Shown piece after piece: positions 22,752 through 64,000 of a stretch of DNA of 64,000 bases (the first letter of the stretch is position 1; each line of letters starts with the position of its first letter). A program made the position numbers and the translations under genes. A model generated the notes under the pieces. That model was not told the DNA's origin. It saw nothing but the letters and a program-made list of their open reading frames with translations, and searched no databases. Source of the DNA: Candidatus Lloydbacteria bacterium RIFCSPHIGHO2_02_FULL_50_18 (GTDB lineage: Bacteria > Patescibacteriota > Minisyncoccia > Phycocordibacterales > UBA6899); NCBI GenBank assembly GCA_001821395.1, contig MHLM01000012.1:64001-128000 (forward strand), given 5' to 3'.

Positions 22752-23222
22752 ATGCGCGGACCAGTAAAGAATCGTAATATCCGAAAGCCGGATGCAAAGT
22801 ATCATTCAGTAGAAGTTTCGACACTCATCAACTACGTGATGTGGGAAGGAAAAAAGACCATCGCAACGACGGTCGTTTATGATGCACTTGAGCTCATCAA
22901 AACTCAGCTAAAAGTAGAGGACCCTATCGAAGTCTACAAGGAAGCACTGCGCAACGCCGGACCGATCATGGAAATTCGTTCACGCCGCGTCGGTGGCGCC
23001 AATTATCAGGTTCCCCGTGAGGTCCGACCCGAGCGCCGCATCTTCCTCGCGCTGCGCTGGATCATCGATGCCGCTCGCTCAAAGAAGGGAGCCGGAATGG
23101 CCAAGAAGCTTGCCGATGAGATCATCTCCGCTTCAAAGAACGAGGGTGAAGCTATCAAGAAACGTGAGAATGTGCACAAGATGGCGGAAGCGAACAAAGC
23201 CTTCGCGCACTTCGCCTGGTAA
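22752..23222 (+). CDS. rpsG: 30S ribosomal protein S7
   Basis: S7 family throughout; 156 aa. Confidence 0.95.
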   Translation: MRGPVKNRNIRKPDAKYHSVEVSTLINYVMWEGKKTIATTVVYDALELIKTQLKVEDPIEVYKEALRNAGPIMEIRSRRVGGANYQVPREVRPERRIFLALRWIIDAARSKKGAGMAKKLADEIISASKNEGEAIKKRENVHKMAEANKAFAHFAW

Positions 23223-23487
23223 AAATTTTGTAATTCTGGCGCCCTTCGCGCTTGACTTTGAACGCGAGTCCGACGAACGTACTATGAGGAGTACGTCCGC
23301 ACGGACATCGCATTCTTGCCGCGCGCGAATTGCATCCAGAATAACAAAATTTTTCGTATCGGCTGCAAAATGCAGCAAATAAAATTCCCTCGAAAGGGGA
23401 ATTTTAATTTTACTAAATCGCGTTGCGGACGTAGTGTTTTATGTTATGGTGACGGAAGATCGTTCAAATTTAATGGAGGAGTGCGTT

Positions 23488-24075: not shown

Positions 24076-24158
24076 TCCATCAAGCAAGCAATACGAACCG
24101 ATCCTCGGTTCGTTTTTCATTGCAATTTGTGATTCTTAGCCATATTTTCCCGCTTTTT

Positions 24159-24179
24159 TGTCAAGGTTAAACCTTGACA
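24159..24179. repeat. 21-bp perfect palindrome TGTCAAGGTTaAACCTTGACA within a ~40-bp repeat (second copy 45036..45056)
   Basis: Identical arms, T-run 5' flank conserved in both copies. Confidence 0.6.
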
Positions 24180-34164: not shown

Positions 34165-34527
34165 ATGACTACAGGAACGGAACACACAAAGAAAGCCGCA
34201 AGTGCAAAGACGAAAGAGGTAGTCTCGAAGCTGCGCATCCGCGTACGCGCATATGAGTACAAGATCCTCGACGCATCGGTGCGTCAGATCATGGATACGG
34301 CATTGCGCTATGATGCAAAGCTTGTCGGGCCGATCCCTCTTCCGACTCAGATCACGAAGTACACGGTCAATCGTTCAGCGTTCATCTATAAGGATGCTCG
34401 TGAGCAGTTCGAGATGCGCGTCCACAAGCGCTTGATCGACATCATGAACCCGACACCAAAGGTGATCGAGGCGCTGACTAACCTTACACTTCCTTCAGGC
34501 GTCAATATCGACGTGAAGATGATGTAA
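34165..34527 (+). CDS. rpsJ: 30S ribosomal protein S10
   Basis: LRIRVRAYEYKILD...GPIPLPT...RLIDI. Confidence 0.9.
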   Translation: MTTGTEHTKKAASAKTKEVVSKLRIRVRAYEYKILDASVRQIMDTALRYDAKLVGPIPLPTQITKYTVNRSAFIYKDAREQFEMRVHKRLIDIMNPTPKVIEALTNLTLPSGVNIDVKMM

Positions 34528-34557
34528 TTTGAGCGCGAGACTTTGTTATCTTCGCTA

Positions 34558-34640
34558 TAAACCCCGCTCACCGTATATGAATACGGCTCGGGTGGTTCGC
34601 AGCTCGATGCCTCGTCTCGCATCTCAAATTTCAACATCTT
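34558..34640 (+). repeat. ~85-nt conserved intergenic element (copy D), between rpsJ and rplC; homologous to 37468..37545
   Basis: About 75% identity to copy C with a compensatory change in the hairpin ccgtatATGAatacgg vs tcatatACGAatatgc. Confidence 0.6.
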
Positions 34641-34786
34641 CTTCAGGGTGCTGAACATTTTCTCTGCAAATTTGATCGAATGTCTTACCGTTTTCCGGAA
34701 GGAAAGCGGGGGCTTCGGTTATTACGGAGCAAAGTACTATTCTTTCTTTCGTTTATTCCCATGACATTCCTACTTAAATTACGGAC

Positions 34787-36587: not shown

Positions 36588-37433
36588 ATGAAAACATTCA
36601 AACCATTAACGCCTAGTCTGCGTAACACCGTCCTCACTCCCTATAAGGAGCTCCTCTCCGGCGATTCGAAAGCAATCCCGAAGAGTCTTACGAAAGGAAA
36701 GCGAAAGACCGGTGGCCGCAATAACCAGGGTCGCATCACCATGCGGCACATTGGCGGAGGCAACAAGAACCTGAAGCGCGATGTCGACTTCAAATACAAG
36801 AAGCGTGACGTCTTGGGTCGCGTCGAAGCGGTCCAGTACGATCCCTTGCGCACCGCATTCATCGCCCTCGTTGTCTACAAGGACGGAGAGCGCGTGTATG
36901 TCGTCGCACCGAAGGGGATGAAGAAGGGAGACACGATGATCACGAGTGAGAAGGCCGCCCCTACGGTAGGGAACCGACTTCCGCTCAAGAAGATCGCCGT
37001 CGGTACCTTCGTGTACAACGTTGAGGTCCAGCCCGATGGAGGAGCAAAGCTTGCTCGCTCTGCCGGAAACTTCATCGAAGTCATCGCCAACGATATGGGC
37101 TACGCATTCTTGAAGATGCCGTCATCCGAGGTCCGCAAGGTCCCCGAGAATTGTTGGGCATCGATCGGAGGAGCTTCGAACGATCAGCACAAGCTCCGCA
37201 AGGAGGGAAAGGCCGGTCGTAACCGCTGGAAGGGTATCCGACCACACGTGCGCGGTTCAGCCATGAACGCCGTCGACCATCCTCATGGAGGTGGAGAAGG
37301 CCGCATGGGTCGCGGTATGCGACGCCAGAAGTCACGCACCGGTAAGTTCATCGGCAAGGGACAGAAGACCAGATCGCCGAAGAAGTATTCGAACGTGTTC
37401 ATTGTCTCTCGCCGAAAGGTGGGCAAGAAGTAA
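36588..37433 (+). CDS. rplB: 50S ribosomal protein L2
   Basis: HPHGGGEGR motif, 281 aa. Confidence 0.95.
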   Translation: MKTFKPLTPSLRNTVLTPYKELLSGDSKAIPKSLTKGKRKTGGRNNQGRITMRHIGGGNKNLKRDVDFKYKKRDVLGRVEAVQYDPLRTAFIALVVYKDGERVYVVAPKGMKKGDTMITSEKAAPTVGNRLPLKKIAVGTFVYNVEVQPDGGAKLARSAGNFIEVIANDMGYAFLKMPSSEVRKVPENCWASIGGASNDQHKLRKEGKAGRNRWKGIRPHVRGSAMNAVDHPHGGGEGRMGRGMRRQKSRTGKFIGKGQKTRSPKKYSNVFIVSRRKVGKK

Positions 37434-37467
37434 AAATTTTCGCGCATTGCTTTGTTGTCATCGTCGC

Positions 37468-37545
37468 GAACCCCGCTCGTCATATACGAATATGCCTCGG
37501 GAGGTATCGCAACTCGACGCCTCGCACTGCATCGAAAATATTTAC
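37468..37545 (+). repeat. conserved intergenic element (copy C), downstream of rplB; also shares gcattgcttt module with the 45.6/49.6-kb elements
   Basis: Alignment to 34558..34640; followed by terminator 37570..37591. Confidence 0.6.
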
Positions 37546-37569
37546 TTCTTTCTAAGATTGAAGGAAAAC

Positions 37570-37591
37570 AAAACCGCTTACTAAGCGGTTT
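37570..37591 (+). terminator. rho-independent terminator after rplB
   Basis: aaaccgcttactaagcggttttgttg. Confidence 0.7.
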
Positions 37592-37672
37592 TGTTGTATA
37601 CAAGCACTTATGTGTCAAAAGTTTTTATACATAAGAAAATTGACATTCTTATGTATGAGGATATAATACTTC

Positions 37673-38760
37673 AATGAGTAAAAAACCAGCTATTGTCGAA
37701 CCCCTCAAATTAGATGGCTTAGGGCTAGACTACAACAGGTTTGCAGAAGAACTTTCAACCGCCGAATATGCGCTCGGGTTAATTGAGGGTATGCAAAAAA
37801 ACTACTAAACCCAAATCTTTTGATTAGTCCCCTAACCGCCAAGGAAGCAGCTGCGAGTTCTAAGATAGAAGGAACACAAAGTGATGTGTCCGATGTATTT
37901 ATGTTTGAGGCGGGTGGGGAAACTAAACATGCAGATACACGTGAGGTTGTGAATTACCGTCGAGCAATGCGTTTGGCCATGACGGAGATTAAAAAAGGAA
38001 GAGAGGTAAGCAGTCATCTGGTAGAGACCCTTCACGGAGTATTATTGAAAGATGTCCGTCATATTGGCAATCTTGGAAAATATAGAGAAGGACAAGTTTG
38101 GATTGCCGAACGATCTGGTGATCCAATTGAGAAAGCGATATACGTCCCACCCGAGGCAATACACGTGCGCGGGTTGGCTCAGAATTTGATTGAATACATA
38201 AACGTGGGGAAGGAGAATGCATTGATTAAGGCAGGCGTTGCACACTATCAGTTTGAGGCAACTCATCCATTTGATGATGGGAATGGGAGAATTGGGAGAC
38301 TCCTTATTCCAATTGTGTTACACAGACATCAGAGATTGTCATCACCAATTCTTTATCTTAGCGGCTACTTTGATGATCATCGAGATGAATATATCGCGAG
38401 GCTCCATGCATTGGATGATGGTGCTGATATGGAAGATTGGTTAAAATTTTTTTACATTCGGTTAGCCAGCAGCTCGGTCAAACACAAAAAATAATTGAAG
38501 GAATTTATGAACTCTATGACCAGCTTAGACTTGAAAATAGGGGGATAAAATCACCATTCGTTATTCCCCTCATTGATATGATGTTTGAGATGCCAATTTT
38601 TACGTTGGCCATGGTGCAAGAATCAACTAAATGCTCGAGCTATATAACTGCATCGACACTAATTAAGAGAATGATTGATGCGGGTCATGTTGAAAATGTA
38701 GGAAAGGTTGGAAGGGAAAAGCTTTATGAATTCCGCTCGCTTGTAAAAGTATTAAAATAA
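37673..38760 (+). pseudogene. Fic/Doc family protein (HPFxDGNGR) disrupted by two -1 frameshifts at 7-nt homopolymers
   Basis: Three consecutive frames encode Fic_N (..GMQKK|LLNPNLLISPLTAKEAAASSKIEGTQ), core with HPFDDGNGRIGRLL, and C-terminal wHTH-like part; breaks at A7 (~37795) and T7 (~38455); restoring 8 nt at each gives one ~360-aa ORF. Confidence 0.7.
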
Positions 38761-38888
38761 TCAATGAATCTGTCCTGGTAAGGAAATTAATCACAATTGA
38801 TTTCACAAAATTTTTACTTCCTTTACTTCCCACTGAAACCCATGTAGTTTGACGGGGGATTGATACGTACTTTAACAGGAGAAATCCG

Positions 38889-39546
38889 ATGAGTATTGGT
38901 GAAAATGTTTTTGAGCGTACGGGTCCTTCGACCATGTCGGCGCGCGGTTTCTACGGCGCACTGGGATTGATCGTCGCGTTTGGGCTCTGGTTATCAAGTC
39001 TCGTGGCGGCAGAGTTCACTGCATGGCAGCCGTCACTCATGGTGATACTGCTTGTCGGGCTCGGCATCCCGATCATCGGCATTGTGATCGCTGCGAAGTC
39101 TGAGACTCCAGCGATCTCATTCCTCGGCTACCTCATGGTGGCGGTGCCATTCGGGATGCTCCTGGGGCCAACGCTCAATCAGTATTCGCCCGAGGTCGTG
39201 CAAAAGGCGATGTTCTACACCGCGGCGACCACGCTCGTCATGGGTGCGGCGGGCGTGCTCTATCCGAATTTCTTTGCGCGGATCGGCGGCGCACTCTTCA
39301 TGGCTCATGGCACTCATCGGGCTTGTCGTTGTGCGCGTCATCGGCATCTTTATTCCCGCATTGGGCAACATGTCGGCCATCGACTATATTTCTGCGGGTA
39401 TCTTCTCGCTTTACATCGGCTACGATATGTACCGTGCAAGTGCAATGCCGCACACGCTCGACAATGCCGTTGACGCCGCATTGTCCCTGTATCTCGACAT
39501 CATCAATTTGTTCCTCAGTTTGCTCCGGATATTCGGCAAGAATTGA
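38889..39546 (+). pseudogene. Bax-inhibitor-1/YccA family membrane protein disrupted by 7-bp tandem duplication
   Basis: tcatggc|tcatggc at ~39298..39311; removing one copy joins ORFs 38889..39473 and 39244..39546 into ...GGALFMALIGLVVVRVIGIFIP...LYLDIINLFLSLLRIFG. Confidence 0.65.
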
Positions 39547-39698
39547 TCGTTTCGTTTTAAACTCGGCATACGCCGGGTTTTTTGTTGCATGTATTTGTCA
39601 CGATGGTTGATCTCAGCCTCGCGAGCTGGTGGTGTTGCGTCTCACAGCCACTTGTGTTTGTATGGTCACAGCGTTCATTTGATCACAAAGGAGAATTC

Positions 39699-40199
39699 AT
39701 GTTGCTCGACAAATTGGTTCCCGTTCTCGGTACGCCCATTCGCATTGGTGTACTTATGGAAAGCAGTGGCGATGGAACAAAAATACCATTTTTCCTCATC
39801 GATTTTGGTAAAGAGTATCCATCGATCGAACCGTTGATCGCCAGAAATGGCACAATGACGCTCGACATCGTACCGGATGGTGACCACTGTACTTTCCACG
39901 TCACTGGAGATCGGATGGTCAGCGAGCTCACTCCCGAGCTTTTGAATCGCGCGCTCGCCGCACCGCCTGAGACGAGGAACCAAGTATTGTTCGGGCAGGG
40001 AAGGCCCGAATTCGCTTCAAGTGTTACGCTTTCAGGCGAATCATGCGAGCAATTCATCGAAGCATTCACTGCAGGCGGCGGGTTCTGGCTTCTCGTCACG
40101 CTCAGTCAGTCCGGAACTCGATCCGTGATCGCTCCAGACGGTGAGATCATTCGTACTGAGTCGTGTTCGCGCTTGGAACTTGAGTATCTCTTGGGTTAA
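39699..40199 (+). CDS. hypothetical protein
   Basis: Internal Met MLLDKLV of ORF 39582; followed by terminator 40210..40247. Confidence 0.4.
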   Translation: MLLDKLVPVLGTPIRIGVLMESSGDGTKIPFFLIDFGKEYPSIEPLIARNGTMTLDIVPDGDHCTFHVTGDRMVSELTPELLNRALAAPPETRNQVLFGQGRPEFASSVTLSGESCEQFIEAFTAGGGFWLLVTLSQSGTRSVIAPDGEIIRTESCSRLELEYLLG

Positions 40200-40209
40200 G
40201 GTTTGCCGT

Positions 40210-40247
40210 GCAACACCCCGACGTGTCGGGGTGTTTTTGTTTTTTCG
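40210..40247 (+). terminator. rho-independent terminator
   Basis: caacaccccgacgtgtcggggtgtttttgtttttt. Confidence 0.75.
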
Positions 40248-40274
40248 GTAAATAAAAACTCCGCAGATGCGGAG

Positions 40275-40634
40275 TCAGTCGGGCTTGAAAAGTTTTGCAA
40301 GAAGTTCTTGCGGGAGAATGTTCGGATCGAGCGGCAATGCATCCAATTCGTCAGCCGACCCTATCGTCTCTCGCGACTCAGCGATCTCGAGTGTGCGGAC
40401 GAGGAGCAATATCAATGCAGTGATATATTGCCGGAATTCATCAGCGGTCTGCGTAGCTACCTCTTCGTGTGCACTTTTTGCACGCTCCCCGATCAGTTCA
40501 ATGAGTCCTCCAAGAGAGGGATTAATTTCTTTTAATCGCAGTACGTGAGTCGTAATGTGTGCAATGAGGGCCGGCCGTAATTGTGGAAGTTCACGGCTTG
40601 CCGCCAAAACATCCAAGGGCATGACATGTTTCAT
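40275..40634 (-). CDS. hypothetical protein
   Basis: 119 aa; its own terminator hairpin (aactccgcagatgcggagt) on minus strand at 40255..40275. Confidence 0.4.
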   Translation of the reverse strand: MKHVMPLDVLAASRELPQLRPALIAHITTHVLRLKEINPSLGGLIELIGERAKSAHEEVATQTADEFRQYITALILLLVRTLEIAESRETIGSADELDALPLDPNILPQELLAKLFKPD

Positions 40635-40795
40635 GGATACTCCATGTGGTGAACAGTGCGCTTACTCTGTTGTACGCGCGAGCGTATGTTGTGTCAAGAA
40701 ATAGCGACTGCATCCCATTTTGTTGTTGAATGGAATGTTTCATCCCGCCCCGTCTGCTCGCTTTACATCTTTTATTGTTGCGTTAGAGTAAGCAT

Positions 40796-41116
40796 ATGTT
40801 TAACTTCAATAAAAAACCGATCCCTGAAGATCGAATAATGACGTGGGAGGAGGAGGCGACCTTCCCCATTGAGCTCCAAGAAGCAGCTCTCTCGAGTTTG
40901 ATAGAAGTCGCACAGCGGCAAGGAGCATCTTCGGTCGATCTTGAAAAACAATTGAATACGATTGAGATCAAGAGACGGGTCATTCTCTGGCTCGGAACTT
41001 TTCCTGATATAGCAGAGAAGAATGCTGCGATCGAACGGGCAAATGCGGAGGGTTTGCCGCCGGAGATATTCACTACTCCGGAGTTTGTTGCTCCGGAAGT
41101 TGAGACGCTCCAATAG
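40796..41116 (+). CDS. hypothetical protein
   Basis: 106 aa; terminator 41165..41197. Confidence 0.4.
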   Translation: MFNFNKKPIPEDRIMTWEEEATFPIELQEAALSSLIEVAQRQGASSVDLEKQLNTIEIKRRVILWLGTFPDIAEKNAAIERANAEGLPPEIFTTPEFVAPEVETLQ

Positions 41117-41206
41117 GCGGTGTGCCGTGGTCTTTTGACCTTGCCACCCCTGGTCTTTGAACGAAAAACCCGCTCATTAGTAGCGGGTTTTTGTAACAGA
41201 GCTCCC

Positions 41207-41272
41207 CTATTTCTTTCCTCCCTTCTTCGGCTTCTTTGCCTCCTTCTTGATGTTGTTGTCTCCGCGTCCCAT
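41207..41272 (-). CDS. putative 21-aa lysine-rich micro-protein (MGRGDNNIKKEAKKPKKGGKK)
   Basis: ATG..TAG small ORF immediately followed on minus strand by palindromic terminator hairpin 41165..41197; paralog of 41362..41427. Confidence 0.3.
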   Translation of the reverse strand: MGRGDNNIKKEAKKPKKGGKK

Positions 41273-41361
41273 GTTGTATGCGTCTATTGATAATATTGCA
41301 CAATTATATCATGACACAGCAAAACACCACCGCACATTTGTGCGGTGGTGTTTTGCTTGTT

Positions 41362-41427
41362 GTTATTTCACTACGACCTTCTTTGGCTTTTTCTTATTTT
41401 TCTGCTGTGCATTGTTTCCTTTTGCCA
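41362..41427 (-). CDS. putative 21-aa lysine-rich micro-protein (MAKGNNAQQKNKKKPKKVVVK)
   Basis: Same length and pattern as 41207..41272; followed by palindromic terminator 41318..41353. Confidence 0.3.
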
Positions 41428-42028
41428 TGACGTATTGCTTATACTGCTAATGAACGAACGTATCTTCAGTGTAGCAGATTTTCGTCATGACATGAAAATG
41501 CCCGGTTGTACCCATGTTGATAGTGGTCATACGGACCGACCCATGCTTATTTGCAAAAACAGGGGATAACTTTCACTACGGAAGGCGCTTTGAGGCTATA
41601 ATGGTGACAACATTTTCGCACATTACGCGCTGGGTGCTTTTGGAGTAAAAAGCGAGCAGGACGTAGTGTGAGAAGATCCACAAAATGGATCCTTATGCTA
41701 TGTTCCAGCGAATGGACATATCGTTGCGGAGAAACAAAAACTTCGTTAACGGTAGAGGTTAGTCGTATATCTTTCTTATCAACATCGTGGATACGCGTTC
41801 GTTGCCTACAGCAAGGAATGTGAAAAGTGATGAAGAGAAGTACTCTGGAGCCAATTTTTATGAATCCGTTGTCGAGTGCTAAAAAGCAAAAGTAACGATC
41901 GCCAATCGTCCTCCCGCATAAAAAAGTATCTGTAGTACTTTTTATGCCAGAGTGCATGCTCATCGAAAGATATCAACGAATTGTCATAGCGCCGCGTTCA
42001 GGCAAGAACGCGGCGTTATGTATTGAGG

Positions 42029-42146
42029 ATTGAGAACATAGCAAATTTCTTTGTTGAAACATGAACATGCAAGCAAGCCGTACTCCGAGTACGGCTTGCT
42101 TGCATGTTCATGTTTCGTCTCGAACTTTGCATATGTTCTCAATCCT
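42029..42146. repeat. ~118-bp near-palindrome with 25-bp perfect inner arms (ATGAACATGCAAGCAAGCCGTACTC|GGAGTACGGCTTGCTTGCATGTTCAT)
   Basis: Inner 52-bp perfect palindrome 42061..42112 flanked by imperfect inverted arms GGATTGAGAACAT...ATGTTCTCAATCC. Confidence 0.75.
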
Positions 42147-42231
42147 AAAGGATGAATGTCCAATCGCTACTGTTGCGATTTTTTTATTATCTGGCAGTCT
42201 GAGTACAGAATGGTCTTCGAGGGAGGCAGGA

Positions 42232-42918
42232 ATGGTTCAAGCATCAGTCAACAAAGAGCAACTAGATAAGCTTCGAAATACTTATTGCGATGCAGCGCAG
42301 TACTTGGGTGTCCCACGCACAAGTGCAGAACGATGTTTCACGAAACTCGCGCAATACTATGCTGAACCGCATCGGCGCTATCATACGCTGGCTCATCTGC
42401 ACCAGTGCATGGTTGAGTTTGCGGATGTAGTGTGGCACAGTCAGGATCCTGCGCTCATTGTCATGGCTATTTTTTACCATGATATTACGTACGACGTTCA
42501 TCGCAACGATAACGAAGCGAAGAGTGCGTTGTATTGGAAATTCATTGCCCGCCATGTACTCGAAGTGAAGAACGAAGGATTCATCGCCGAGGTCGCCCGA
42601 TTGATCGAACTTAGCGGCGAACATCGTACGGACCCTGTCACTGATCCTGATGCCGCGCTCTTCCTCGACGTCGACATGTCGATTCTAGGAGCTGACGCAC
42701 CGGAGTACGACGCATATGCGGCCGCAGTGCGACAGGAGTATGCGCACTGCAGTGACGATGAATGGGCGTTTGGTCGCGTTGCGAAGTTCCTTGATCCGAC
42801 CTTGTGTGAGGACAGAATATTTCTCACTGATATCTTTCGTCAAAAATATGAAGAAAATGCGCGCGCAAACCTGATGGAAGAGCGTTGCCGCTATCAAAAA
42901 AACCTACCGCTCGCATGA
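42232..42918 (+). CDS. HD-domain metal-dependent phosphohydrolase
   Basis: RYHTLAHLH and FYHDITYD (H..H / HD) motifs; start at MVQASVNK downstream of the palindrome; terminator overlaps stop (42903..42930). Confidence 0.55.
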   Translation: MVQASVNKEQLDKLRNTYCDAAQYLGVPRTSAERCFTKLAQYYAEPHRRYHTLAHLHQCMVEFADVVWHSQDPALIVMAIFYHDITYDVHRNDNEAKSALYWKFIARHVLEVKNEGFIAEVARLIELSGEHRTDPVTDPDAALFLDVDMSILGADAPEYDAYAAAVRQEYAHCSDDEWAFGRVAKFLDPTLCEDRIFLTDIFRQKYEENARANLMEERCRYQKNLPLA

Positions 42919-43017
42919 GCGGTTTTTTCTTGACAAAGAGTATTTGTTGTGGAGAATCAAGAACGGCAGTCCCAATAGGGAAAGCCGTTCTTTTACAACC
43001 AACCGAAAGGATAACTC

Positions 43018-43866
43018 ATGAGCGAGATAGCCGAAAAAGTAAACCCATCGACCGATGGGCAGATGAAAGACCTCACCAGCGTTCTGGTGACCGCCATGCC
43101 CGATCACGAAAAATTCCCACGGGAACAAATCGAGTATTGGATGAAAAACAAGCGCTTGCTCGCGGCAAAGGTGCGCGCAGTGCTTGAGGGGGCCCCACGT
43201 GGCCTTGGGCAAACAACGCAAGAAGTGCTGCAATCCTGGGAGCGATTTTATCGCGAGATACTCAAAATAAAAGTCGACTTCTCGGATATCGATACTCCGC
43301 CACGTTTTAGTGAATTTAAGGCCATTATTCCCGTGATCTCATCTATTTCCGCAGAAGAAATTGTCGGTTTACTCACGAAAAATTTCAATCATGAATTTAG
43401 TTTGAGAGACTTTCAGTGCAACTTAGATGAGCTCTCGCACTTGCGTCCGGAGGGGCACTATGCGGTTTTGCACCGAGGTACTCGAATGCCCGATCTCGAT
43501 ATGCAGATCACCAGGCAGCGAGCTACTGAGGGTGTGGTCGCGAGGTACACTTGCGTACATCCTCCCGTCGATGCTTCTTCATTTATGAATCCAAGGGAGT
43601 ACATCCTTTTTGCGGCGTTCAACGTCTGGATGACATCTGGTCGTCACTCGTCACCATGGTTCGACTACGACATTGCTGGCACTAATTTTATTGGCGAGAG
43701 AGCGCTCCCTGGAACCGCGTTCCCACAGATGGATGCTTTTGATCGACCACTGGCCGCGTGTTGCCACTCTAGCAATAACCATGAGTGCCACATTGAACAC
43801 CCTTGTGGCTTTGAAAATTCCTACGGGCGACTTGTGAAAGTACTTTCTTCCTTGCGCATCGCATAA
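43018..43866 (+). CDS. hypothetical protein; shares a local motif with ORF 50374..51195 (possible paralog)
   Basis: RPEGHYAVLHRGTRMPD vs RPRCTYVVVHRGGMEPD; terminator 43871..43906. Confidence 0.5.
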   Translation: MSEIAEKVNPSTDGQMKDLTSVLVTAMPDHEKFPREQIEYWMKNKRLLAAKVRAVLEGAPRGLGQTTQEVLQSWERFYREILKIKVDFSDIDTPPRFSEFKAIIPVISSISAEEIVGLLTKNFNHEFSLRDFQCNLDELSHLRPEGHYAVLHRGTRMPDLDMQITRQRATEGVVARYTCVHPPVDASSFMNPREYILFAAFNVWMTSGRHSSPWFDYDIAGTNFIGERALPGTAFPQMDAFDRPLAACCHSSNNHECHIEHPCGFENSYGRLVKVLSSLRIA

Positions 43867-43899
43867 CGTGTTTATCACCACCGAGAAATCGGTGGTTTT

Positions 43900-44970
43900 T
43901 TATATGATGAGCATTCCGTCGCCGAATGAGTAGAAGCGGAATTTTTCCCTTATGGCGATGTCGTAGAGCGCGAGGATGTCGCGCTTCGCTCTTTTGTGTT
44001 TGAGGAGTGCGTCGACCAAGAGCATGAGTGATGAGCGAGGGACGTGGAAGTTCGTAATAAGCCCATCTGCAATCTTGAATTCGTACGGCGGGTAGATAAA
44101 TATATTCGTAGGCTTAGAACATTGCTCAACACTCCAAGGTTCCACCTTGGAGTGTTGGATTGCAGCGGATTCGAGGGTACGCATGGCGGTAGTGCCGACG
44201 GGGATGATGGGAATACCCGCCGCTTTTGCACTATTTATTTTTTTTGCGCTTTCCTTTGTGATATCGAGATACTCCGCAAAAAGTTTTTTACTTTTGAAAT
44301 TTTGTTCATCAATCGGCGCAAAGGTACCCGCACCTACATGAAGCGTGACCTCCGTACGCGTGATGTGTTCACGTTTCATTTTTTCGAGTAAGCGATCGGT
44401 GAAATGGAGCGACGCCGTTGGTGCTGCAATTGACGCGGGATATTTCGCGAGAATACTTTGGTATTTTTCACGCAATGTGTGCTCGGACATCGTATTGCCC
44501 TTGATATATGGGGGTATTGGCGTCACACCCTCTTTCTCGAGCAAACTCCAAAGGCTGCCTTTGGATACACTGGGATTGAAAAAGAAAAATTGCTCTTCTT
44601 GTCTTTCGACCTCAAGGTGCGCCCCTGACTTAAAGAAGAGTTTGGCACCGGGAAGGATCTTGCGGTCGACCACTCCTTTAATAGAGATGTCGCCGGGACG
44701 GAATTCATTCATCATGAGAAGCACCTCGATCTTGCCGCCCGTTTCTTTGGAAAGCCACAATCGGGCAGGAACGACCTTTGTATCATTAAAGACAAGCAGG
44801 CTGGGTTTGGGGAGATATTGGTCAATATTCCGGAAAACATCAAAATGCACCTTATCAGTTTTCGTATCGTAGACGAACAATCGAGCGGAATCTCGCGGAG
44901 AAGCGGGCTCATTGGCGATAAGCCCCTCAGGGAGGTGGTAGTTATAATCATCGAGAGAGATCATGTGCAC
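43900..44970 (-). CDS. queA: S-adenosylmethionine:tRNA ribosyltransferase-isomerase
   Basis: LPEGLIANEPASPRDSARL, PIPPYI, AAPTASLHFT, HVGAGTF, TNFHVPRSSL, YSFGDGMLI motifs. Confidence 0.9.
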   Translation of the reverse strand: MHMISLDDYNYHLPEGLIANEPASPRDSARLFVYDTKTDKVHFDVFRNIDQYLPKPSLLVFNDTKVVPARLWLSKETGGKIEVLLMMNEFRPGDISIKGVVDRKILPGAKLFFKSGAHLEVERQEEQFFFFNPSVSKGSLWSLLEKEGVTPIPPYIKGNTMSEHTLREKYQSILAKYPASIAAPTASLHFTDRLLEKMKREHITRTEVTLHVGAGTFAPIDEQNFKSKKLFAEYLDITKESAKKINSAKAAGIPIIPVGTTAMRTLESAAIQHSKVEPWSVEQCSKPTNIFIYPPYEFKIADGLITNFHVPRSSLMLLVDALLKHKRAKRDILALYDIAIREKFRFYSFGDGMLII

Positions 44971-45035
44971 ATGCTATCAGGTGAAGCAATATGGGCAAGC
45001 TTTTCTATGTTTAGCAACGTATTTTCGACTTTTTT

Positions 45036-45056
45036 TGTCAAGGTTTAACCTTGACA
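45036..45056. repeat. 21-bp perfect palindrome TGTCAAGGTTtAACCTTGACA (second copy of 24159..24179)
   Basis: Same arms and same gtattttc...ttttttt 5' flank as copy 1. Confidence 0.6.
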
Positions 45057-45179
45057 ATTTTAAGTGGTGCGTTTGCGGCTACGATAATATTCCACAGATA
45101 ATCCACAGAGTTATCAACAGCAAAATGTAATAATTATGGCAAAAAATAACCCCAACCCTTCGGTCGGGGTTGGGGTAGG

Positions 45180-45419
45180 TCAGTCGACCTCTGTGATGGT
45201 AAACTTTTCGCTGCAGGAGTAGAGGAAGCCCTCCTCGAGTCCCCAACAGAAAAAGAACATCCCGTCGCCCTCCTTGGGGGGCACCCCATCCTTATTCGAA
45301 ACGGTCGTTACTCCACCTTCGCGAGTGACTTTGACGTCAACGTAGGACCTGGTGGAACTTAAATCTTCCATAAATTCTGCGTGCTCATCTTCGGTGAGTA
45401 TCGCTGTGGCTATTTTCAT
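45180..45419 (-). CDS. hypothetical small protein
   Basis: 79-aa ORF upstream of queA on same strand. Confidence 0.4.
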   Translation of the reverse strand: MKIATAILTEDEHAEFMEDLSSTRSYVDVKVTREGGVTTVSNKDGVPPKEGDGMFFFCWGLEEGFLYSCSEKFTITEVD

Positions 45420-45589
45420 TGTTGCTCCTTCGGTTTGGTTTTTGAGTCTGACATGACATTAGCACGAAAAATATTTATGTCAATAATTTGATATTCCTAT
45501 ATTTTATAACATATTTTGACTTAATTCGAACGCCACACCTAGGAAGTGAGGGAAATAGGTCTTTTGGGAGACTTCACGGGCTTGAAATA

Positions 45590-45720
45590 CGCACCTGGGA
45601 GCGAGGTATTGCTTTTTGAGGGGCTACGGACCGCGGCGGCGGGAGTTTGAGGAAAAAGTCAGCAGACTTTTATCCGTGCCCTCAAAAAGCAATGCCGAGC
45701 GTATACATTGACTTCTTTGG
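45590..45720. repeat. palindromic intergenic repeat element (copy A) upstream of rpsS; related to 49590..49760
   Basis: Internal inverted arms gcgaggtattgctttttgagggg / ccctcaaaaagcaatgccgagcg; aligns to reverse complement of copy B. Confidence 0.65.
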
Positions 45721-45856
45721 GCTGTTTAAGTAGTATCTAGCACAAGGTATTTCAAATAGTTTCACTCTACGCCGTGGGAGGATCAGGGGCGTTGGGAAAT
45801 CTATATCGAAAAATCGCCAAATCGCCCAAAAGGCTTAGAAAAACTTTTATAAACAT

Positions 45857-46201
45857 ATGACAAGATCACTAAAAAAGGGACCATACGTGTACGAGAAATT
45901 GCTCAAGAAGATCGAGGGCAAGAAGCCGGATGTTGCCGGTGTAATTAAGACCTGGGCGCGTGCGTCGCAGATCTCACCTGAGATGGTGGGGCATACCTTC
46001 GGTGTGCACAATGGCAAGGACTTCATTGAGGTAAAGGTCAGCGAGGAGATGGTTGGACATCGTCTCGGTGAATTCTCAGGAACCCGCAAATTCTATCGTC
46101 ACGGTGGAAAGATGCAAAAGGACCTTGAGGCTAAACAGAAGGAAGCCGAGATCTCTGCAGCAAAGGCCGCAAAGGGAGCTGATGCCGCTAAGAAAAAATA
46201 A
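45857..46201 (+). CDS. rpsS: 30S ribosomal protein S19 with Lys/Ala-rich C-terminal tail
   Basis: KKGPYV...[24 protein letters not shown]. Confidence 0.9.
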
Positions 46202-49939: not shown

Positions 49940-50308
49940 ATGCAGATCCGCTTTCGGGTTCGCGAACTCGCTTTGGCAATTCGGGAATTTCTCGTCGGTG
50001 TCTTTGTCTTCTTCCGGCGGTCAGTGAAAAGAAGGGATGAAGTACGATATTGCTTCATGTGCCAAGAGTACGGCCATCCGCTTACTAAAGTATCGTTCAT
50101 GATCCGCACAGAAGCGCGGAGGGGGGCAAAGAAGGAGGCGCCATTCTCGGTCATGGAACTCCACGTGTGCAGTATGCATCATCCTGACAAGGACGTCGTC
50201 GGGGCAGACCTGTCCGAGGAAACACGATCATTTCTTCGAAACAATGATGCTGCCGCAGCGTGTGTCTACTATTACCATGATCCCGATCATGTTTTCCGCC
50301 TCGGATAA
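49940..50308 (+). CDS. hypothetical protein
   Basis: 122 aa; its 3' end plus terminator is duplicated at 51215..51288. Confidence 0.4.
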   Translation: MQIRFRVRELALAIREFLVGVFVFFRRSVKRRDEVRYCFMCQEYGHPLTKVSFMIRTEARRGAKKEAPFSVMELHVCSMHHPDKDVVGADLSEETRSFLRNNDAAAACVYYYHDPDHVFRLG

Positions 50309-50373
50309 GAGGTGGTTTTTTTATACTCCGTACGTTATCCAAAGGTAATTGGACAAAGTAGCAAAAATGCAAT

Positions 50374-51195: not shown

Positions 51196-51214
51196 TTGCT
51201 GAGCCGACACTTGT

Positions 51215-51288
51215 GCCGCAGCGTGTGTCTACTATTATCATGATCCCGATCATGTTTTCCGCCTCGGTTAAGAGGCGGTTTTTTTATA
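51215..51288 (+). repeat. non-coding duplicate (~96% identical) of 50252..50330 (3' end of ORF 49940 + terminator)
   Basis: gccgcagcgtgtgtctactatta(c/t)catgatcccgatcatgttttccgcctcgg(a/t)taagagg(t/c)ggttttttta; no start codon in copy 2. Confidence 0.75.
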
Positions 51289-52367: not shown

Positions 52368-52474
52368 GTTGAATAACTCGCCGATAATCTCGGCGAGTTT
52401 TTTGTGCATTGTTGAATTGCATACTGTTGAGAGCAGTACTATACTTTATGTACATTAATATATATCCTCTCGTC

Positions 52475-55219
52475 ATGTCCTCAACAAAAAGGTTTTTTTC
52501 ACTGTGCATGTTTGGCATATTCCTCCTTCCCTCACTCGCCGCTGCTGACACCACCATCTCCTCCAACATCACCACGAATCAAACCTGGACCACGGCAAGC
52601 AGTACATACATCGTCACCACCGGTATTGCGATCAACGCAGGTGTCACCCTCACCATCAACCCCGGAGTGATCGTGAAGTTCAGCGGGATCATGTCCGGCA
52701 TCACCGTGAATGGGACGTTAAACGCCCAAGGAACCGCACTTGCACCGATATACTTCACCTCATACAAAGATGACACCGTGAATGGTGATACGAATGGCGA
52801 TGCGACCTCAACAACCCCAGCCGGGGGCGACTGGTTTTGGTTCTCCATTCCCGCGGGCGGAGCAGCAACGATCGACAACGCGATCATCCGCTATGGCGGC
52901 AGTTTCAATACTGCGCTGTTCTATAATAACGGAGGTAACCTCACCCTTGCGAACTCCGAAGTCGCATCCAGTTCCAAGTATGGCATCTGGACATATTCCG
53001 GCATATCAACTATCGCTTCTTCCACCATCGATCACAACGCGAGCTACGGTATCTATCATACGGGAGGCACCACTACCGTTGCCACGAGTACGATCCGCGA
53101 TCACAGCACCTATGGCTTCTCCACCCAGAGCGGAACTGGAAATCTCATCCTCACCAACAATATCTTTTCCGGTAATCTTCAAGGTGGAGGACTGGTGAAC
53201 TTGGCCGACAGTGCAAACGTGACCCATACGAACAACAGTGCAACGGGGCAAGGAAAGGGTGGCATGGTCATCTATGGTTCTCCCAATAAGGCACAGACAT
53301 GGGGAGCAGACCCGCTCTTCCCGTATATTATCTCAACGACAACAGGGTCGGTCACCGTGAGTACGTATGCCATCACCCTCAATCCCGGTGCGATCATCAA
53401 ATTTGAAGGAACAACCGCAGGGTTTGCGGGCAATTCAGGCACCTTCACTGCCGCGGGAACTACACAATCTCCCGTATATTTCACCTCCATCAAGGACGAC
53501 ACCGTGGGTGGCGACACCAATGGGAATGGCACGGGTACCACTCCATCTGCGGGGGATTGGGATGGTCTCATGTCCCAGAACTATAGCAATCTCACGTTGA
53601 ACAATACCGTGATCCGCTACGGTGGCTCAAAGATGCTCTATGCCAACGGTGTGAACAGCGTCATCAACCTATTCAACTCAGAAGTTGCCAGCAGTTCAAG
53701 TGCGGGAATCTATAGTGATGCAGGAACAGTGAATGCCACCGGTACGAGCATTCACGACAATCGCTACGGCTATTATCACGGCAATGTCCAAGGCAATAGC
53801 ATTGCCCACATTGCCAATGCCGGCAACACCATCTATCGCAATAGCACCTATGGTATTTATAACAATGGAACCGCCCTCGTGAATGCCGAGCAGGTATACT
53901 GGCCGGCGACAACAACGGGAGCGACGATGAATGGGCCGTATAGTACAAGCACCAACCCAGGGGGGCATGGAGATGCTGTGCTCCCCACATACATCGACTT
54001 TGATCCTTGGCTCTCTACCGTGTCAGGAAATATCGCAACGAATACCACGTGGACTGCTTCGAGTACATATGTCATTGATGGAACGCTCACGGTGAATGCG
54101 GGGACGACACTCACGATTCCTGCAGCTACGGTGGTGAAGTTTGCCAATGCAACCTCAAAGATCAGCGTCTCGGGGAGCTTGGTTGCAGATTCTGCAGCGT
54201 CTTCCTCACGAATATATTTCACGTCAATCAAGGATGATGCGGTGGGAGGGGATACCAATGGAGATGGGGGTGCGACTTCACCTGCTGCGGGAGATTGGGA
54301 TGGGATCAAAGTGAATGCGGGAGGCGTTGCAACACTGAACTTCATTTCTGCTCGCTATGGAGGAAGTGGTGGGCCCATGCTTTGGAACTATGCAGGAACG
54401 TTGGATCTTAATAATTCAGAAATTGCGAGCAGTAGTAATACGGGAATCTTCCATTCCTCGGGTGCCACGCAATTAATAGTTCGAGCTTGTGATATTCACA
54501 ACAATAATTATGGCATATTTGTTGACGACAGCTCGCTTGTGACAATCGGCAGCAACAATATTCATGGCAATGTTGTGGGAGTAAATGATAATACTTTTTT
54601 TGGGATTGATATTAGATATAACTATTGGGGTGATGCAAGTGGCCCATATAATTCTGTCTATCACCCGACTGGGACCGGTGATACCATCGTTGAGAATGCG
54701 TTTACGCTTGTTTCTCCATGGTTAGACAGGGTACATTATTTGTATTTCTTAAACCACAATTTGGTTACTTCGATTACCAGTGGAGTATTGGATTGGAATT
54801 GGTTCAACGGCACATCTACTTATGCGACGGCTTGGTATGCAGGAGTTAACACATGGAACACATATGGAAATTCGGTTGGAGGAGTTACTTTTGCAACAAG
54901 TACCACGGCAACATCCTCAGCTGATTTACTCGTTTTGGACATGGCTAGCTCATCTAGTGATTTATTCTATGCCATCTACGACCCCTTTGTTACTCCTACG
55001 GAAATTAAATTTAACCCTTATTATATGAACACTGCAACTGCTAATATAAGGCAAATGACCACAACTCATGAACTTGGTCATGCCCTAGGGCTTTGGCACA
55101 GTTATATAAACAACATCATGATTGCATCCCCAGCTTCAACTACTGGTCAGGTTTCACTGGGCACTCAAGATATGTTGGATTACGATTATTGTTGGGTGAG
55201 TCATAATTGTGGGATATAA
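52475..55219 (+). CDS. large secreted protein: signal peptide, three ~270-aa parallel beta-helix-like super-repeats, C-terminal metzincin (HELGHALGLWH) protease domain
   Basis: Repeated YFTS(I/Y)KDD.V.GDTNG..G.T.PAGDW and I(R/I)YGGS...NSE(V/I)ASSS blocks; HEXXHXXGXXH at residues ~880; start at MSSTKRFFSLCMFGIFLLPSLAAA within ORF 52409. Confidence 0.7.
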   Translation: MSSTKRFFSLCMFGIFLLPSLAAADTTISSNITTNQTWTTASSTYIVTTGIAINAGVTLTINPGVIVKFSGIMSGITVNGTLNAQGTALAPIYFTSYKDDTVNGDTNGDATSTTPAGGDWFWFSIPAGGAATIDNAIIRYGGSFNTALFYNNGGNLTLANSEVASSSKYGIWTYSGISTIASSTIDHNASYGIYHTGGTTTVATSTIRDHSTYGFSTQSGTGNLILTNNIFSGNLQGGGLVNLADSANVTHTNNSATGQGKGGMVIYGSPNKAQTWGADPLFPYIISTTTGSVTVSTYAITLNPGAIIKFEGTTAGFAGNSGTFTAAGTTQSPVYFTSIKDDTVGGDTNGNGTGTTPSAGDWDGLMSQNYSNLTLNNTVIRYGGSKMLYANGVNSVINLFNSEVASSSSAGIYSDAGTVNATGTSIHDNRYGYYHGNVQGNSIAHIANAGNTIYRNSTYGIYNNGTALVNAEQVYWPATTTGATMNGPYSTSTNPGGHGDAVLPTYIDFDPWLSTVSGNIATNTTWTASSTYVIDGTLTVNAGTTLTIPAATVVKFANATSKISVSGSLVADSAASSSRIYFTSIKDDAVGGDTNGDGGATSPAAGDWDGIKVNAGGVATLNFISARYGGSGGPMLWNYAGTLDLNNSEIASSSNTGIFHSSGATQLIVRACDIHNNNYGIFVDDSSLVTIGSNNIHGNVVGVNDNTFFGIDIRYNYWGDASGPYNSVYHPTGTGDTIVENAFTLVSPWLDRVHYLYFLNHNLVTSITSGVLDWNWFNGTSTYATAWYAGVNTWNTYGNSVGGVTFATSTTATSSADLLVLDMASSSSDLFYAIYDPFVTPTEIKFNPYYMNTATANIRQMTTTHELGHALGLWHSYINNIMIASPASTTGQVSLGTQDMLDYDYCWVSHNCGI

Positions 55220-60142: not shown

Positions 60143-61438
60143 TTGGGCAAGAGCCCCACATTAACCATGAACAATTTTTTCTACAAACTACGCTTGATGA
60201 TCTCTGATCCGTCACTACGAGGGCGACTCCTCTTTGTTGTCGGAGCACTGGCCGTCTTCCGTATCGCCGCTTCGATCCCAATTCCGGGAGTCGATCACGC
60301 TGCACTGCTCCAGTTTTTCCAGAACAATCAGTTCCTGGGACTCTTGAATGTGTTTTCGGGATCGGGACTCTCAACACTCTCCATTGTCATGCTTGGTGTC
60401 GGACCGTATATCACGGGTTCCATCATCATGCAGCTCCTTACGATGATGTCGCCAAAACTGAAGGCGATGTATCACGAGGAAGGGGAGATCGGTCGCAAGA
60501 AATTCACTCAGTATTCACGCTTACTTACGGTGCCACTCGCAATGCTTCAGGGGTATGGATTGCTTGTATTGCTGGCGCGCCAGGGGGTGCTCGGAGATCT
60601 GAATCCATTCCAGTTGTTCGTAAACGTACTCATTGTTACGGCAGGTTCCCTTTTCCTGATGTGGATCGGTGAGCTAATCTCTGAGTTCGGTATCGGCAAT
60701 GGCGTCTCGATCCTCATCTTCGCAGGTATCGTCTCGCGTATTCCTACGGTTGCCTCTCAGACCTTGGTCTCCTACAACCCTCAGGATATACCGCTCTATC
60801 TTGCCTTCACCATCGCGGCAGTGGTTATCATCGCCGGGGTCATCGTCATGACCGAAGCGGAGCGACCGGTGCCGATCACGTATGCGAAGCGCGTGCGTGG
60901 CGGAAAGATGTACGGAGGAGTCTCTACTTACTTGCCGCTTCGTGTGAACCAGGCAGGTGTGATCCCGATCATTTTTGCTCTTTCGATCTTGCTTTTTCCT
61001 CAGCTTATCGGAGGATTTCTCTCTGGGCTCGCTAATCCGACGGCGCAGATGATCGGTGAATTCATGAAGACGAACTTTTCGCAGGGATGGATCTATTCGA
61101 TCTGCTACTTTGCGCTTGTCTTCCTCTTCACGTTCTTCTATACCGCAGTGACGTTCGATCCGGAAGCGGTTGCAACCAACCTTCAAAAGTCGGGTGCGTT
61201 CATTCCGGGAGTTCGACCGGGTGCAGCGACGGCAGAGCATATTGCGAAGATCCTCACTCGTACGACATTTGCAGGAGCATTATTCCTCGCAGGGGTCGCA
61301 GTATTGCCGCTTATCATGCAGTCGTTCACGGGAAACCAATCGCTTGCGATCGGTGGTACCGCACTCTTGATCGTTGTGTCGGTTGTGCTTGATCTTATCA
61401 AGAAAATGGACGCACAACTCTCGATGCGCGAGTATTAA
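60143..61438 (+). CDS. secY: preprotein translocase SecY (alternative start at 60167)
   Basis: LRGRLLFVVGALAVFRIAASIPIPGVD N-terminus, 10 TM. Confidence 0.9.
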   Translation: MGKSPTLTMNNFFYKLRLMISDPSLRGRLLFVVGALAVFRIAASIPIPGVDHAALLQFFQNNQFLGLLNVFSGSGLSTLSIVMLGVGPYITGSIIMQLLTMMSPKLKAMYHEEGEIGRKKFTQYSRLLTVPLAMLQGYGLLVLLARQGVLGDLNPFQLFVNVLIVTAGSLFLMWIGELISEFGIGNGVSILIFAGIVSRIPTVASQTLVSYNPQDIPLYLAFTIAAVVIIAGVIVMTEAERPVPITYAKRVRGGKMYGGVSTYLPLRVNQAGVIPIIFALSILLFPQLIGGFLSGLANPTAQMIGEFMKTNFSQGWIYSICYFALVFLFTFFYTAVTFDPEAVATNLQKSGAFIPGVRPGAATAEHIAKILTRTTFAGALFLAGVAVLPLIMQSFTGNQSLAIGGTALLIVVSVVLDLIKKMDAQLSMREY

Positions 61439-61638
61439 AAAACGAGCAATTTGGGCGCACTACAGGTTTGTCATCGGGTATGACCCCACGTCAACGTACG
61501 AGAGTACGTCTCGTGAGGATCATCCCTCGACGCACCCGTATTGCATCCCAAATTGTTCGTTTTTGTTTTGTCTTAAAATCATGAACATTTGGTTGTCGCG
61601 AATATCGTTGTAGCCGGCAAGTAGATCAAAACACAAAA

Positions 61639-61665
61639 GACCCGAAAGGGTTTTTTGTTTTATCG
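61639..61665 (+). terminator. rho-independent terminator between secY and adk
   Basis: aaaagacccgaaagggttttttgtttt. Confidence 0.65.
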
Positions 61666-63366: not shown

Positions 63367-64000
63367 CGAATTTCCATCGGATGAATTGCAGCCCTCCGCC
63401 TACCATCCCGAAGAAACAGCGGAGTCGGCAGACCTTTCTCTACTTGAGGATGCTCTCTACCCTGAGGAAAACACTGAAAATGCTGCAGCAGCAGCGGTTG
63501 TAGGAGAGCATGAGGCTATGGCGCTCCGGCAATCGGAGCGAGATCTATCGCAGGAGATAGTCACGCTCCAAGAAAAATTTGAAACGTTGCTCAAGGAGAG
63601 CGAGGTGGAACTATCGCTTGGTGCGAGCAGTCTTGATGCGTCTGCGCATGCGTTTGGTTTGGATGCTGCTGAAAAAAATGAAGCGCTTGAAACGATAGGG
63701 TGGAGCGCTCGCGAGCAAGATCTCCGAGAGCGTCTGCATCAAAGCACCGAGCGATTAGCTAAAGCACTAAGAGAAGGCGCGGGGGTTGTGTCGACTGCTT
63801 TTGTGCTCGGTATTTCAACTCCTGCGTATGCTGAAACGCCCACCGCGCCACTCGAGTCGCTCACCCGAGCGAGTGTTGCTACAGAGACGGGGGAACGGAG
63901 CCCGCTTCCGTCGTACGAGGAGGTGAAAGAACAATTCCGCGCATCAGCACTCATCGCCCTGACAGAAGAGCGAGCGGTCTTTGTGCGGACAAAGGACGGC
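63356..64000 (+). CDS. acidic hypothetical protein, 3'-partial (runs off window)
   Basis: ATG at ~63356, no stop through 64000 (>=215 codons); Glu/Ala-rich. Confidence 0.4.
   Translation, partial: MEPNEFPSDELQPSAYHPEETAESADLSLLEDALYPEENTENAAAAAVVGEHEAMALRQSERDLSQEIVTLQEKFETLLKESEVELSLGASSLDASAHAFGLDAAEKNEALETIGWSAREQDLRERLHQSTERLAKALREGAGVVSTAFVLGISTPAYAETPTAPLESLTRASVATETGERSPLPSYEEVKEQFRASALIALTEERAVFVRTKDG

Follow-up and report, generated by a model that had tools for sequence, protein, structure and literature searches.

Hairpin repeats at cistron junctions of a Lloydbacteria genome: a putative cross-phylum family related to MITEs of the Correia and ERIC kind

Introduction

Small palindromic repeats near bacterial genes have been described in several groups. 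The Correia (NEMIS) elements of Neisseria are MITEs of 100–155 bp, present in many copies near genes; they have fixed 24–26-bp terminal repeats, TA duplications and an IHF site, and are found in one genus (PMC2229807). Their transcripts form hairpins that are substrates of RNase III (PMC2229807). The 127-bp ERIC/IRU repeats of Yersinia (De Gregorio et al. 2005, via PMC2229807) are also small palindromes that form a long stem-loop. ERIC repeats are co-transcribed with the flanking genes and alter mRNA stability, depending on the orientation and on ribosomes, which expose a cleavage site (PMC2229807).

The hairpin repeat described here resembles both kinds. On the other hand, its interior is conserved and its termini differ from copy to copy, in contrast to the fixed ends of Correia. 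It also differs from ERIC, which occurs in enterobacteria only and has TA termini (PMC2229807). The core described here spans several phyla and has no sequence similarity to ERIC. The stop codon of the upstream gene lies in the stem, and in the copies from genomes of the candidate phyla radiation (CPR, Patescibacteria) the outer stem is made of the neighbouring coding sequence. Co-transcription with the flanking genes, which was described for ERIC, is what we infer for the present repeat.

Like the repeat studied here, REP and REPIN sequences are extragenic palindromes found at the 3' ends of genes; a role in stabilising mRNA has been proposed for them, and they evolve in a way that preserves the hairpin. 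Target-site duplications, which were present in relatives of this repeat, would not be expected of RAYT-mediated movement. REP sequences are 20–40 bp long with a GTAG or CGTC tag at one end (PMC3733652), whereas the core of the present repeat is about 100 nt with TTTGRG/CYCAAA ends. An assignment to the RAYT-associated REP/REPIN elements was rejected on the core length of 98–106 nt and the absence of either tag.

Two RNA systems are also relevant. The S10 leader, which mediates attenuation by L4, and other r-protein leaders are structured RNAs in r-protein operons, the setting in which the present repeat was noticed. Known leaders precede the regulated cistron and are single-copy and operon-specific, whereas the repeat follows cistrons, is multi-copy and also lies beside unrelated genes. 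The RNase III hairpins between the early genes of phage T7 are imperfect and intercistronic, and once cut they leave the upstream message with a protective 3' stem. The present repeat is likewise imperfect and intercistronic with conserved internal loops, a functional analogy without sequence relation.

Results

Five hairpin copies in the window

The window, that is, the whole 64-kb stretch of DNA analysed, contained five copies of an imperfect hairpin repeat with a unit of about 125–145 nt. The stop codon of rpsG, rpsJ, rplB or secY was the start point for four of them. The copies and the two genes discussed most are as follows.

23216–23362, forward strand: divergent copy immediately 3' of rpsG (S7), recognised by the covariance model (47.7 bits, E = 1e-9) and by its fold
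34165–34527, forward strand: rpsJ (S10, 120 aa), Pfam Ribosomal_S10 on the same gene in L001
34515–34641, forward strand: hairpin copy in the rpsJ–rplC spacer, core 34528–34628
36588–37433, forward strand: rplB (L2), Pfam Ribosomal_L2 on L001/L002
37420–37554, forward strand: hairpin copy immediately 3' of rplB, core 37437–37538
42026–42146, forward strand: 121-nt near-perfect palindrome (covariance model 46.5 bits, E = 2e-9)
61438–61564, forward strand: hairpin copy immediately 3' of secY (stop codon 61436–61438), core 61450–61552

SecY, S7 and Fic were identified by Pfam. The rpsJ copy folded at -55.5 kcal/mol with 34515/34641 as the outermost pair, and scored 146.8 bits with the covariance model. 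Its 5' arm includes the last four rpsJ codons and the stop codon (34525–34527). The rplB stop codon (37431–37433) also lies within the stem of its copy, and the 3' ends of both genes form the outer 5' arms of the respective hairpins. The same arrangement was seen in all four gene-adjacent copies, in which the 5' arm holds the final codons and the TAA stop of the upstream gene. The secY copy was found with a profile from the rpsJ and rplB copies (nhmmer E = 5.6e-10), and folded at -51 to -65 kcal/mol.

The remaining two copies were found with a covariance model built on these three. The rpsG copy has the base motif TTCTGG-C-GCC...TTGC-AT-CCAGAA, with the rpsG stop codon (23220–23222) in the stem. 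The palindrome at 42026–42146, which lies in the variable insert splitting the S10 operon, has the family apex CCGTAC-loop-GTACGG and a related base, and folded at -86 kcal/mol whichever strand was used. It is a less certain member of the family than the other four. A further pattern match at 63641–63743 was discarded as coding-looking sequence without a hairpin fold.

The sequence-only reading of this DNA had reported an element of about 85 nt that recurs in the same orientation after rpsJ and rplB. The two similar stretches were real, with identities of 72–82%. They could be aligned from the stop codons on, with 72% identity over 71 ungapped nt, 82% over a 56-nt BLAST core (E = 4e-8) and a mean column identity of 78% in the pairwise alignment. 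The apical hairpins had also been read correctly, as CCGTAT-ATGA-ATACGG after rpsJ and (T)CATAT-ACGA-ATATG(C) after rplB, which differ by a double change from G:C to A:U; in the latter hairpin the outermost pair is broken. The unit, on the other hand, had been drawn too short, since a single long hairpin spans 34515–34641 and 37420–37554. To the two junctions three more copies in the window must be added (secY, rpsG and 42026–42146). The paired change was one of many: among the three strongest copies, 17 of the 38 predicted pairs were changed on both sides with the pair retained.

Structure of the core

The layout was common to all copies. The base of the core is a helix, TTTGRG/CYCAAA, followed by a 1x2 internal loop in which a C on the 5' arm faces AU on the 3' arm. 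The middle is a second helix, GCAnnnC/GnnnUGC, often with a pyrimidine-pyrimidine mismatch, and then a loop, GUU/CCUYG. A variable stem and the apex CUC..GUAC-loop-GUAC..CUC complete the structure. The length was constant at 98–106 nt among the pattern matches listed. Beyond the core, a further inverted repeat was present that is specific to each copy.

The TTTGRG...CYCAAA ends were present in all 125 pattern matches listed, as expected from a search pattern that fixes them. Copies found only by profile vary at the ends, with TTTTCG...CGAAAA at 37437–37538 and TTCTGG...CCAGAA at 23237–23343.

Pairing was scored in an alignment of 70 matches. With this alignment fitted to the covariance model seeded on three window copies, which biases the pair counts towards the model structure, 88% of the cells were paired compared with 63% in shuffles, double changes occurred at 36 of the 38 pairs, and the covariation score was 0.49 compared with 0.14 for shuffles and about 0.05 for slid partners. 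A sequence-only alignment of 45 cores by MAFFT did not recover the interior helices, so the structural alignment had to use the covariance model.

The minimum free energy was better on the antisense strand in 115 of the 125 copies listed. This would be odd for an RNA element of the sense strand. The advantage came largely from the pyrimidine-rich loops of the sense strand, which turn purine-rich on the other strand. When A.C and G.U oppositions in the hairpins were counted with both treated alike, the numbers (117 versus 98) did not differ significantly (p = 0.22), and the one conserved U.G pair in the 70-match alignment is on the sense strand. The antisense strand was dropped as the functional strand on these two results.

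Distribution across phyla

At least 119 loci in species-representative genomes matched the pattern of the two conserved base motifs, compared with a rough chance estimate of about a handful, and 32 metagenome loci also carried the core. By record title, the CPR matches belonged to Lloyd-, Kaiser-, Yonath- and Paceibacteria and Saccharibacteria. The proteobacterial matches belonged to Methylotenera and other Methylophilaceae, to Gallionella and Sideroxydans (Gallionellaceae), and to Undibacterium, among them U. pigrum DSM 19792, which is in culture. Three MAGs labelled "Myxococcales" contained dozens of near-identical copies.

A covariance model built on the window copies alone recovered the cross-phylum pattern matches. 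This indicated that they share the fold, not merely the motif. The sequence-only reading had proposed such a search as well as an Rfam scan for r-protein leaders. The former produced more homologues, both within the window and across phyla, and the latter nothing relevant: at the gathering score no family was found anywhere in the 64-kb window, and nothing relevant in 15 related loci, and at E values up to 10 there was nothing relevant around the window copies or on four small loci. Rfam was blank although the str, S10 and spc clusters, in which several r-protein leaders are known in other phyla, all lie in the window.

The core pattern had no match in the viral contigs of IMG/VR, and neither the Undibacterium unit nor the secY copy had a BLAST match in the plasmids of PLSDB. 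Searches of the literature by sequence words and by topic found no description of the hairpin repeat family. From these comparisons the family appears to be widespread, absent from Rfam and related to MITEs of the Correia and ERIC kind.

One locus had an unusual setting. On a 5.5-kb contig labelled Gemmatimonadetes (L103), three tandem cores about 127 nt apart lie at 3053–3428 among 17 arrayed tRNA genes, all on the same strand.

Gene context and site occupancy in related genomes

The window is part of a metagenome contig from Rifle groundwater and belongs to a CPR bacterium, whose L3 protein is 79% identical to that of a Giovannonibacteria MAG. In four related genomes (L011–L014) the L3 identity was 78–86%, and all four have a long rpsJ–rplC spacer. 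The spacer opens with the same kind of hairpin in L011–L013; in L014 no such hairpin was recognised. These relatives have additional copies after rpsG, fusA, rplB and ssb. The window and L012 carry a copy at the rplB site, which is empty in L011, L013 and L014, and the fusA site was filled only in L012 and empty in the window and L011, all sequences being too diverged for the exact junctions to be placed. The rpsG site was also occupied in L011, L012, L062, L116, L137, L146, L150 and L158.

Copies in the CPR genomes, where gene identities in relatives are mostly readings of translations by eye, followed genes of translation and transcription (rpsG many times, and rpsJ, rplB, rplF, rplJ, nusG, rpoC, fusA and secY) and also atpD, atpE, groES, gap, ssb, mreB, ftsE and a few others. 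The distance from the stop codon to the copy was mostly 0–12 nt (range 0–29). With near-duplicates removed, 17 copies of the CPR type were in the sense orientation relative to the adjacent upstream gene and two were antisense (p = 7e-4). The placement at junctions of the transcription/translation superoperon, on which the sequence-only reading had remarked, holds in the CPR genomes, but the element is not specific to r-protein genes.

In the betaproteobacteria the neighbours, read from translations, are housekeeping genes: hisD, ftsK, murB, nadK, glmM, eno, ddl, lpxB, purH and fmt. Among the unflagged copies listed, one was in a divergent intergenic region (four in all), 18 were between (+,+) genes, 16 between (-,-) genes and 16 between convergent genes. 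Divergent regions, where promoters would be, were nearly free of copies among all the matches listed.

Evidence of mobility

The unit in the "Myxococcales" MAGs is about 150 nt and is flanked by 4-bp direct duplications of variable sequence. The duplications were exact in 20 of 40 copies and present at a 1-nt offset in nine more, whereas about 0.16 would be expected by chance. We interpreted these as target-site duplications, which identify the "Myxococcales" copies as true MITEs.

In Undibacterium the core is enclosed in a repeat of about 300 bp that has terminal inverted repeats of 20–36 bp and flanking TA. This repeat (L120 3001–3302, with terminal inverted repeats TAGAACTCATTTCATAAATAGG...; also L029, L039, L097 and L100) holds other hairpins besides the core, and at least two copies per genome were found in two species. 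In the Methylophilaceae the core is the centre of a palindrome of about 145 nt, which lies in either orientation and takes up exactly the space between two co-directional genes. At these copies, 4-bp duplications rich in A and T were read by eye. The target-site duplications show that the core travels within transposing units in some lineages.

A sequence motif was also noted by eye in one of the "Myxococcales" MAGs, ZH-15may19-284. GTCAAS lies 12–13 nt to the left of most copies, in the left flank of the unit (L032, L040, L043, L044, L121 and others). Its other strand reads as a -35-like box, TTGAC, with -10-like hexamers 17 nt further on. This placement suggests insertion just upstream of promoters, or an association with promoters.

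More generally, the repeat is short, non-coding and multi-copy, with five copies per 64 kb in the window and dozens of loci from single MAGs. It forms a stem-loop from end to end, the outermost arms being copy-specific in the CPR genomes, and filled and empty sites were found among relatives at rplB and fusA. The possibility that the copies are DNA-level MITEs, named in the sequence-only reading as one that would overturn it, was borne out for relatives by the 4-bp duplications of the "Myxococcales" MAGs and the TA-flanked MITE of Undibacterium. At the window copies no direct target-site duplication was seen, the right flank being the reverse complement of the left. The membership of the window copies in a transposing family therefore rests on the homology of the core.

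Maintenance of arm complementarity

The left flank of CPR copies is coding sequence, and its reverse complement recurs as the right flank. In 10 of 22 CPR copies the pairing extends for at least eight pairs with no more than one mismatch, compared with a mean of 1.7 for random flank pairs.

The strain represented by L009 provided a close comparison. Its S10 protein is identical to that of the window, and rpsJ differs at 12 of 363 nt. The lower stem is altered on both arms, in a complementary manner. A 54-nt insertion leaves the old 3' arm as a remnant downstream, and the new 3' arm fits the TAG stop codon of this strain, with a mid-stem that resembles the rplB copy. The stem was rewritten in a block, by copy exchange and/or copying of one arm from the other by template switching, and not by serial independent compensations. 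Template switching is known to create and maintain hairpins (PMC8794818).

Such a block rewrite means that covariation demonstrates a maintained hairpin, not action as RNA. At least part of the apparent compensation is owed to exchange between copies or to template switching. The sequence-only reading had taken the paired change as a sign of a functional RNA structure and not of a DNA repeat. That the pairing is maintained was confirmed, but the covariation cannot discriminate between the two.

Transcription signals and neighbourhood of the copies

The stretch from the rpsJ copy to rplC had no site resembling a promoter or a terminator. The absence of a promoter-like site makes read-through transcription plausible. 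No terminator-like U tract was called at the rpsJ or rplB copy, and the bases of the stems are A/U-rich. An intrinsic terminator or attenuator was rejected on these features, there being no U tract directly after the stem, and a boxA-like antitermination site was likewise ruled out on sequence features.

Two signals were found downstream of the rplB copy.

37572–37598, forward strand: short hairpin followed by a T-rich run (aaaaccgcttactaagcggttttgttg), read from the sequence
37640–37667, forward strand: perfect sigma-70-type promoter (TTGACA, 16-nt spacer, TATAAT) before the Fic/DOC gene

The former, which was missed by a simple terminator scanner, is probably a real terminator, judging from its sequence. 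A similar short hairpin and T-rich run, also read from the sequence, follow the secY copy at 61636–61660.

About 8.3 kb (37434–45856) separate rplB from the rest of the S10 operon, which resumes with rpsS at 45857. The insert has a lower G+C content at its start (0.37–0.44) and contains the Fic/DOC gene at 37820–38494. In all of L011–L014 the operon is also interrupted after rplB, by different cargo in each, and the junction therefore looks like a conserved hot spot for variable genes.

The rest of the rpsJ–rplC spacer (34642–34786) is about 97% identical to L009 and contains a second hairpin at about 34688–34730. A hairpin just upstream of rplC is likewise present in L011–L013. The real rplC leader, if any, would be located in 34642–34786.

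Other repeats were noted in the window. A 37-nt repeat, 86% identical and with the palindrome TTGTCAAGGTT(A/T)AACCTTGACA, occurs at 24143–24179, between the post-rpsG gene and fusA, and at 45020–45056, upstream of rpsS. It may be a promoter or operator shared by two operon restarts. A 75-nt repeat, 96% identical, at 50251–50325 and 51214–51288, ends in a terminator-like hairpin behind neighbouring genes. At 52409–55219 there is a 936-aa ORF with internal repeats of about 726–738 nt.

Discussion

We favour, with a probability of roughly 0.55, a palindromic repeat family of the MITE/ERIC kind that is co-transcribed as an intercistronic mRNA hairpin, is tolerated as such and may be put to use in mRNA processing or stability. 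Copies transcribed with the operon mRNA would form a duplex of about 50 pairs with the stop codon in its base. This duplex may act as an intercistronic barrier or processing site, by protecting against 3' exonucleases, by being cut by RNase III or RNase E, or both. The terminating ribosome would open the base of the duplex. Correia and ERIC repeats are reported to act in this manner (PMC2229807). The stabilities of the upstream and downstream cistrons would thereby be uncoupled. The hairpin would not be a sensor of a ribosomal protein, and the complementarity of its arms would be kept by selection for the hairpin together with copy exchange and template-switch copying between the arms. An RNA processing site, which the sequence-only reading had listed as an alternative, may be its function.

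A purely selfish or neutral DNA element without any RNA role is nearly as likely as the mRNA hairpin, though we regard it as possible rather than probable. The position and sense bias would then result from insertion preference and purifying selection. The preference might be for AT-rich sites around TAA or for a particular replication strand, with a compact genome purging other insertions, and the transposition machinery and template switching at the palindrome would keep the arms complementary. The target-site duplications in relatives, including the AT-rich ones read by eye in the Methylophilaceae, are what such an element would leave. Over all phyla there was no clear preference of orientation (18 (+,+) versus 16 (-,-) among the copies listed), the betaproteobacterial neighbours are ordinary housekeeping genes, presence in relatives is patchy, and both arms were rewritten as a block in L009. 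Harder to reconcile with it are the filling of the rpsG site in eight or more loci, whose labels include Kaiserbacteria and Yonathbacteria, that of the secY site in both the window genome and a Saccharibacteria MAG, and the strong sense bias in CPR genomes. The same is true of the unpaired nucleotides conserved across phyla and of stems extended precisely so as to include the stop codon. A point against the favoured reading is the interior conserved across phyla in different mobile shells, which is not predicted for a transposase-bound MITE and suggests a partner that recognises the core. Another reading is a gene for a stable small RNA, or an RNA module that binds protein, excised from polycistronic transcripts. 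The copy-specific outer stem would then be a processing stem in the style of rRNA precursors, which it resembles, and the conserved loops would bind a conserved partner. A small RNA of this kind would best explain the conserved interior and the three tandem copies among the 17 tRNA genes of L103, and is in line with the constant core length, the internal-loop nucleotides conserved across phyla and the location of CPR copies in highly expressed operons. We nevertheless consider it improbable: one MAG has dozens of nearly identical copies flanked by target-site duplications, which look like transposition rather than gene dosage, proteobacteria have copies between genes in both orientations, and no associated protein gene was seen in an unsystematic look. 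Slightly less improbable, and speculative, is a core that is an autonomous structure-specific entity with a conserved partner, either a processed small RNA or a new hairpin mobile element. In the latter case it would insert beside stop codons or into palindromes, and would obtain its own closing stem by snap-back priming that copies the left flank in reverse. It would be transferred horizontally between CPR episymbionts and freshwater or groundwater proteobacteria, and in either form would be independent of the MITE shells.

Two further readings were considered. The sequence-only reading had named an r-protein autoregulatory leader or attenuator of the L4 type, specific to operons such as S10 and spc, as a candidate. 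Four of the five window copies do lie in the str, S10 and spc clusters, and related CPR genomes retain a hairpin at the rpsJ–rplC junction. The core, however, follows many non-ribosomal genes, in other phyla too, and stands after cistrons and not ahead of them, with no match to an Rfam leader and no terminator-like tail or U tract. We hold this reading to be very unlikely, and the betaproteobacterial copies between ordinary housekeeping genes rule out such a leader as the explanation. A site like the attC of integrons, that is, a structure-specific hairpin located after an ORF and active through its bottom strand, would fit a length of about 100–130 nt, a location right after ORFs, a conserved structure with variable sequence and the better folding of the strand complementary to the mRNA. 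But the ends are TTTGRG...CYCAAA and no copy reads RYYYAAC...GTTRRRY, the copies are within essential operons and not cassette arrays, and the two strands do not differ significantly in a count that uses no energy model. This leaves the attC-like reading scarcely credible.

The covariation between two copies in r-protein operons mimicked a dedicated regulatory RNA, whereas the element appears to be a repeat family found across phyla. The repeat is therefore a caution for RNA discovery based on covariation. As a family it is notable for its absence from Rfam and for a conserved interior carried in different mobile shells. In the CPR genomes, which are tiny, it is also notable for its sense orientation at cistron junctions of the most highly expressed operons, for the stop codon inside the stem and for the unusual reverse-complement duplication of the upstream flank. 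If the repeat is only mobile DNA, it would be useful for tracing the flow of genes between CPR bacteria and the organisms around them. If mRNA processing is shaped by it, it would be among the first cis-acting RNA elements described for gene expression in the CPR.
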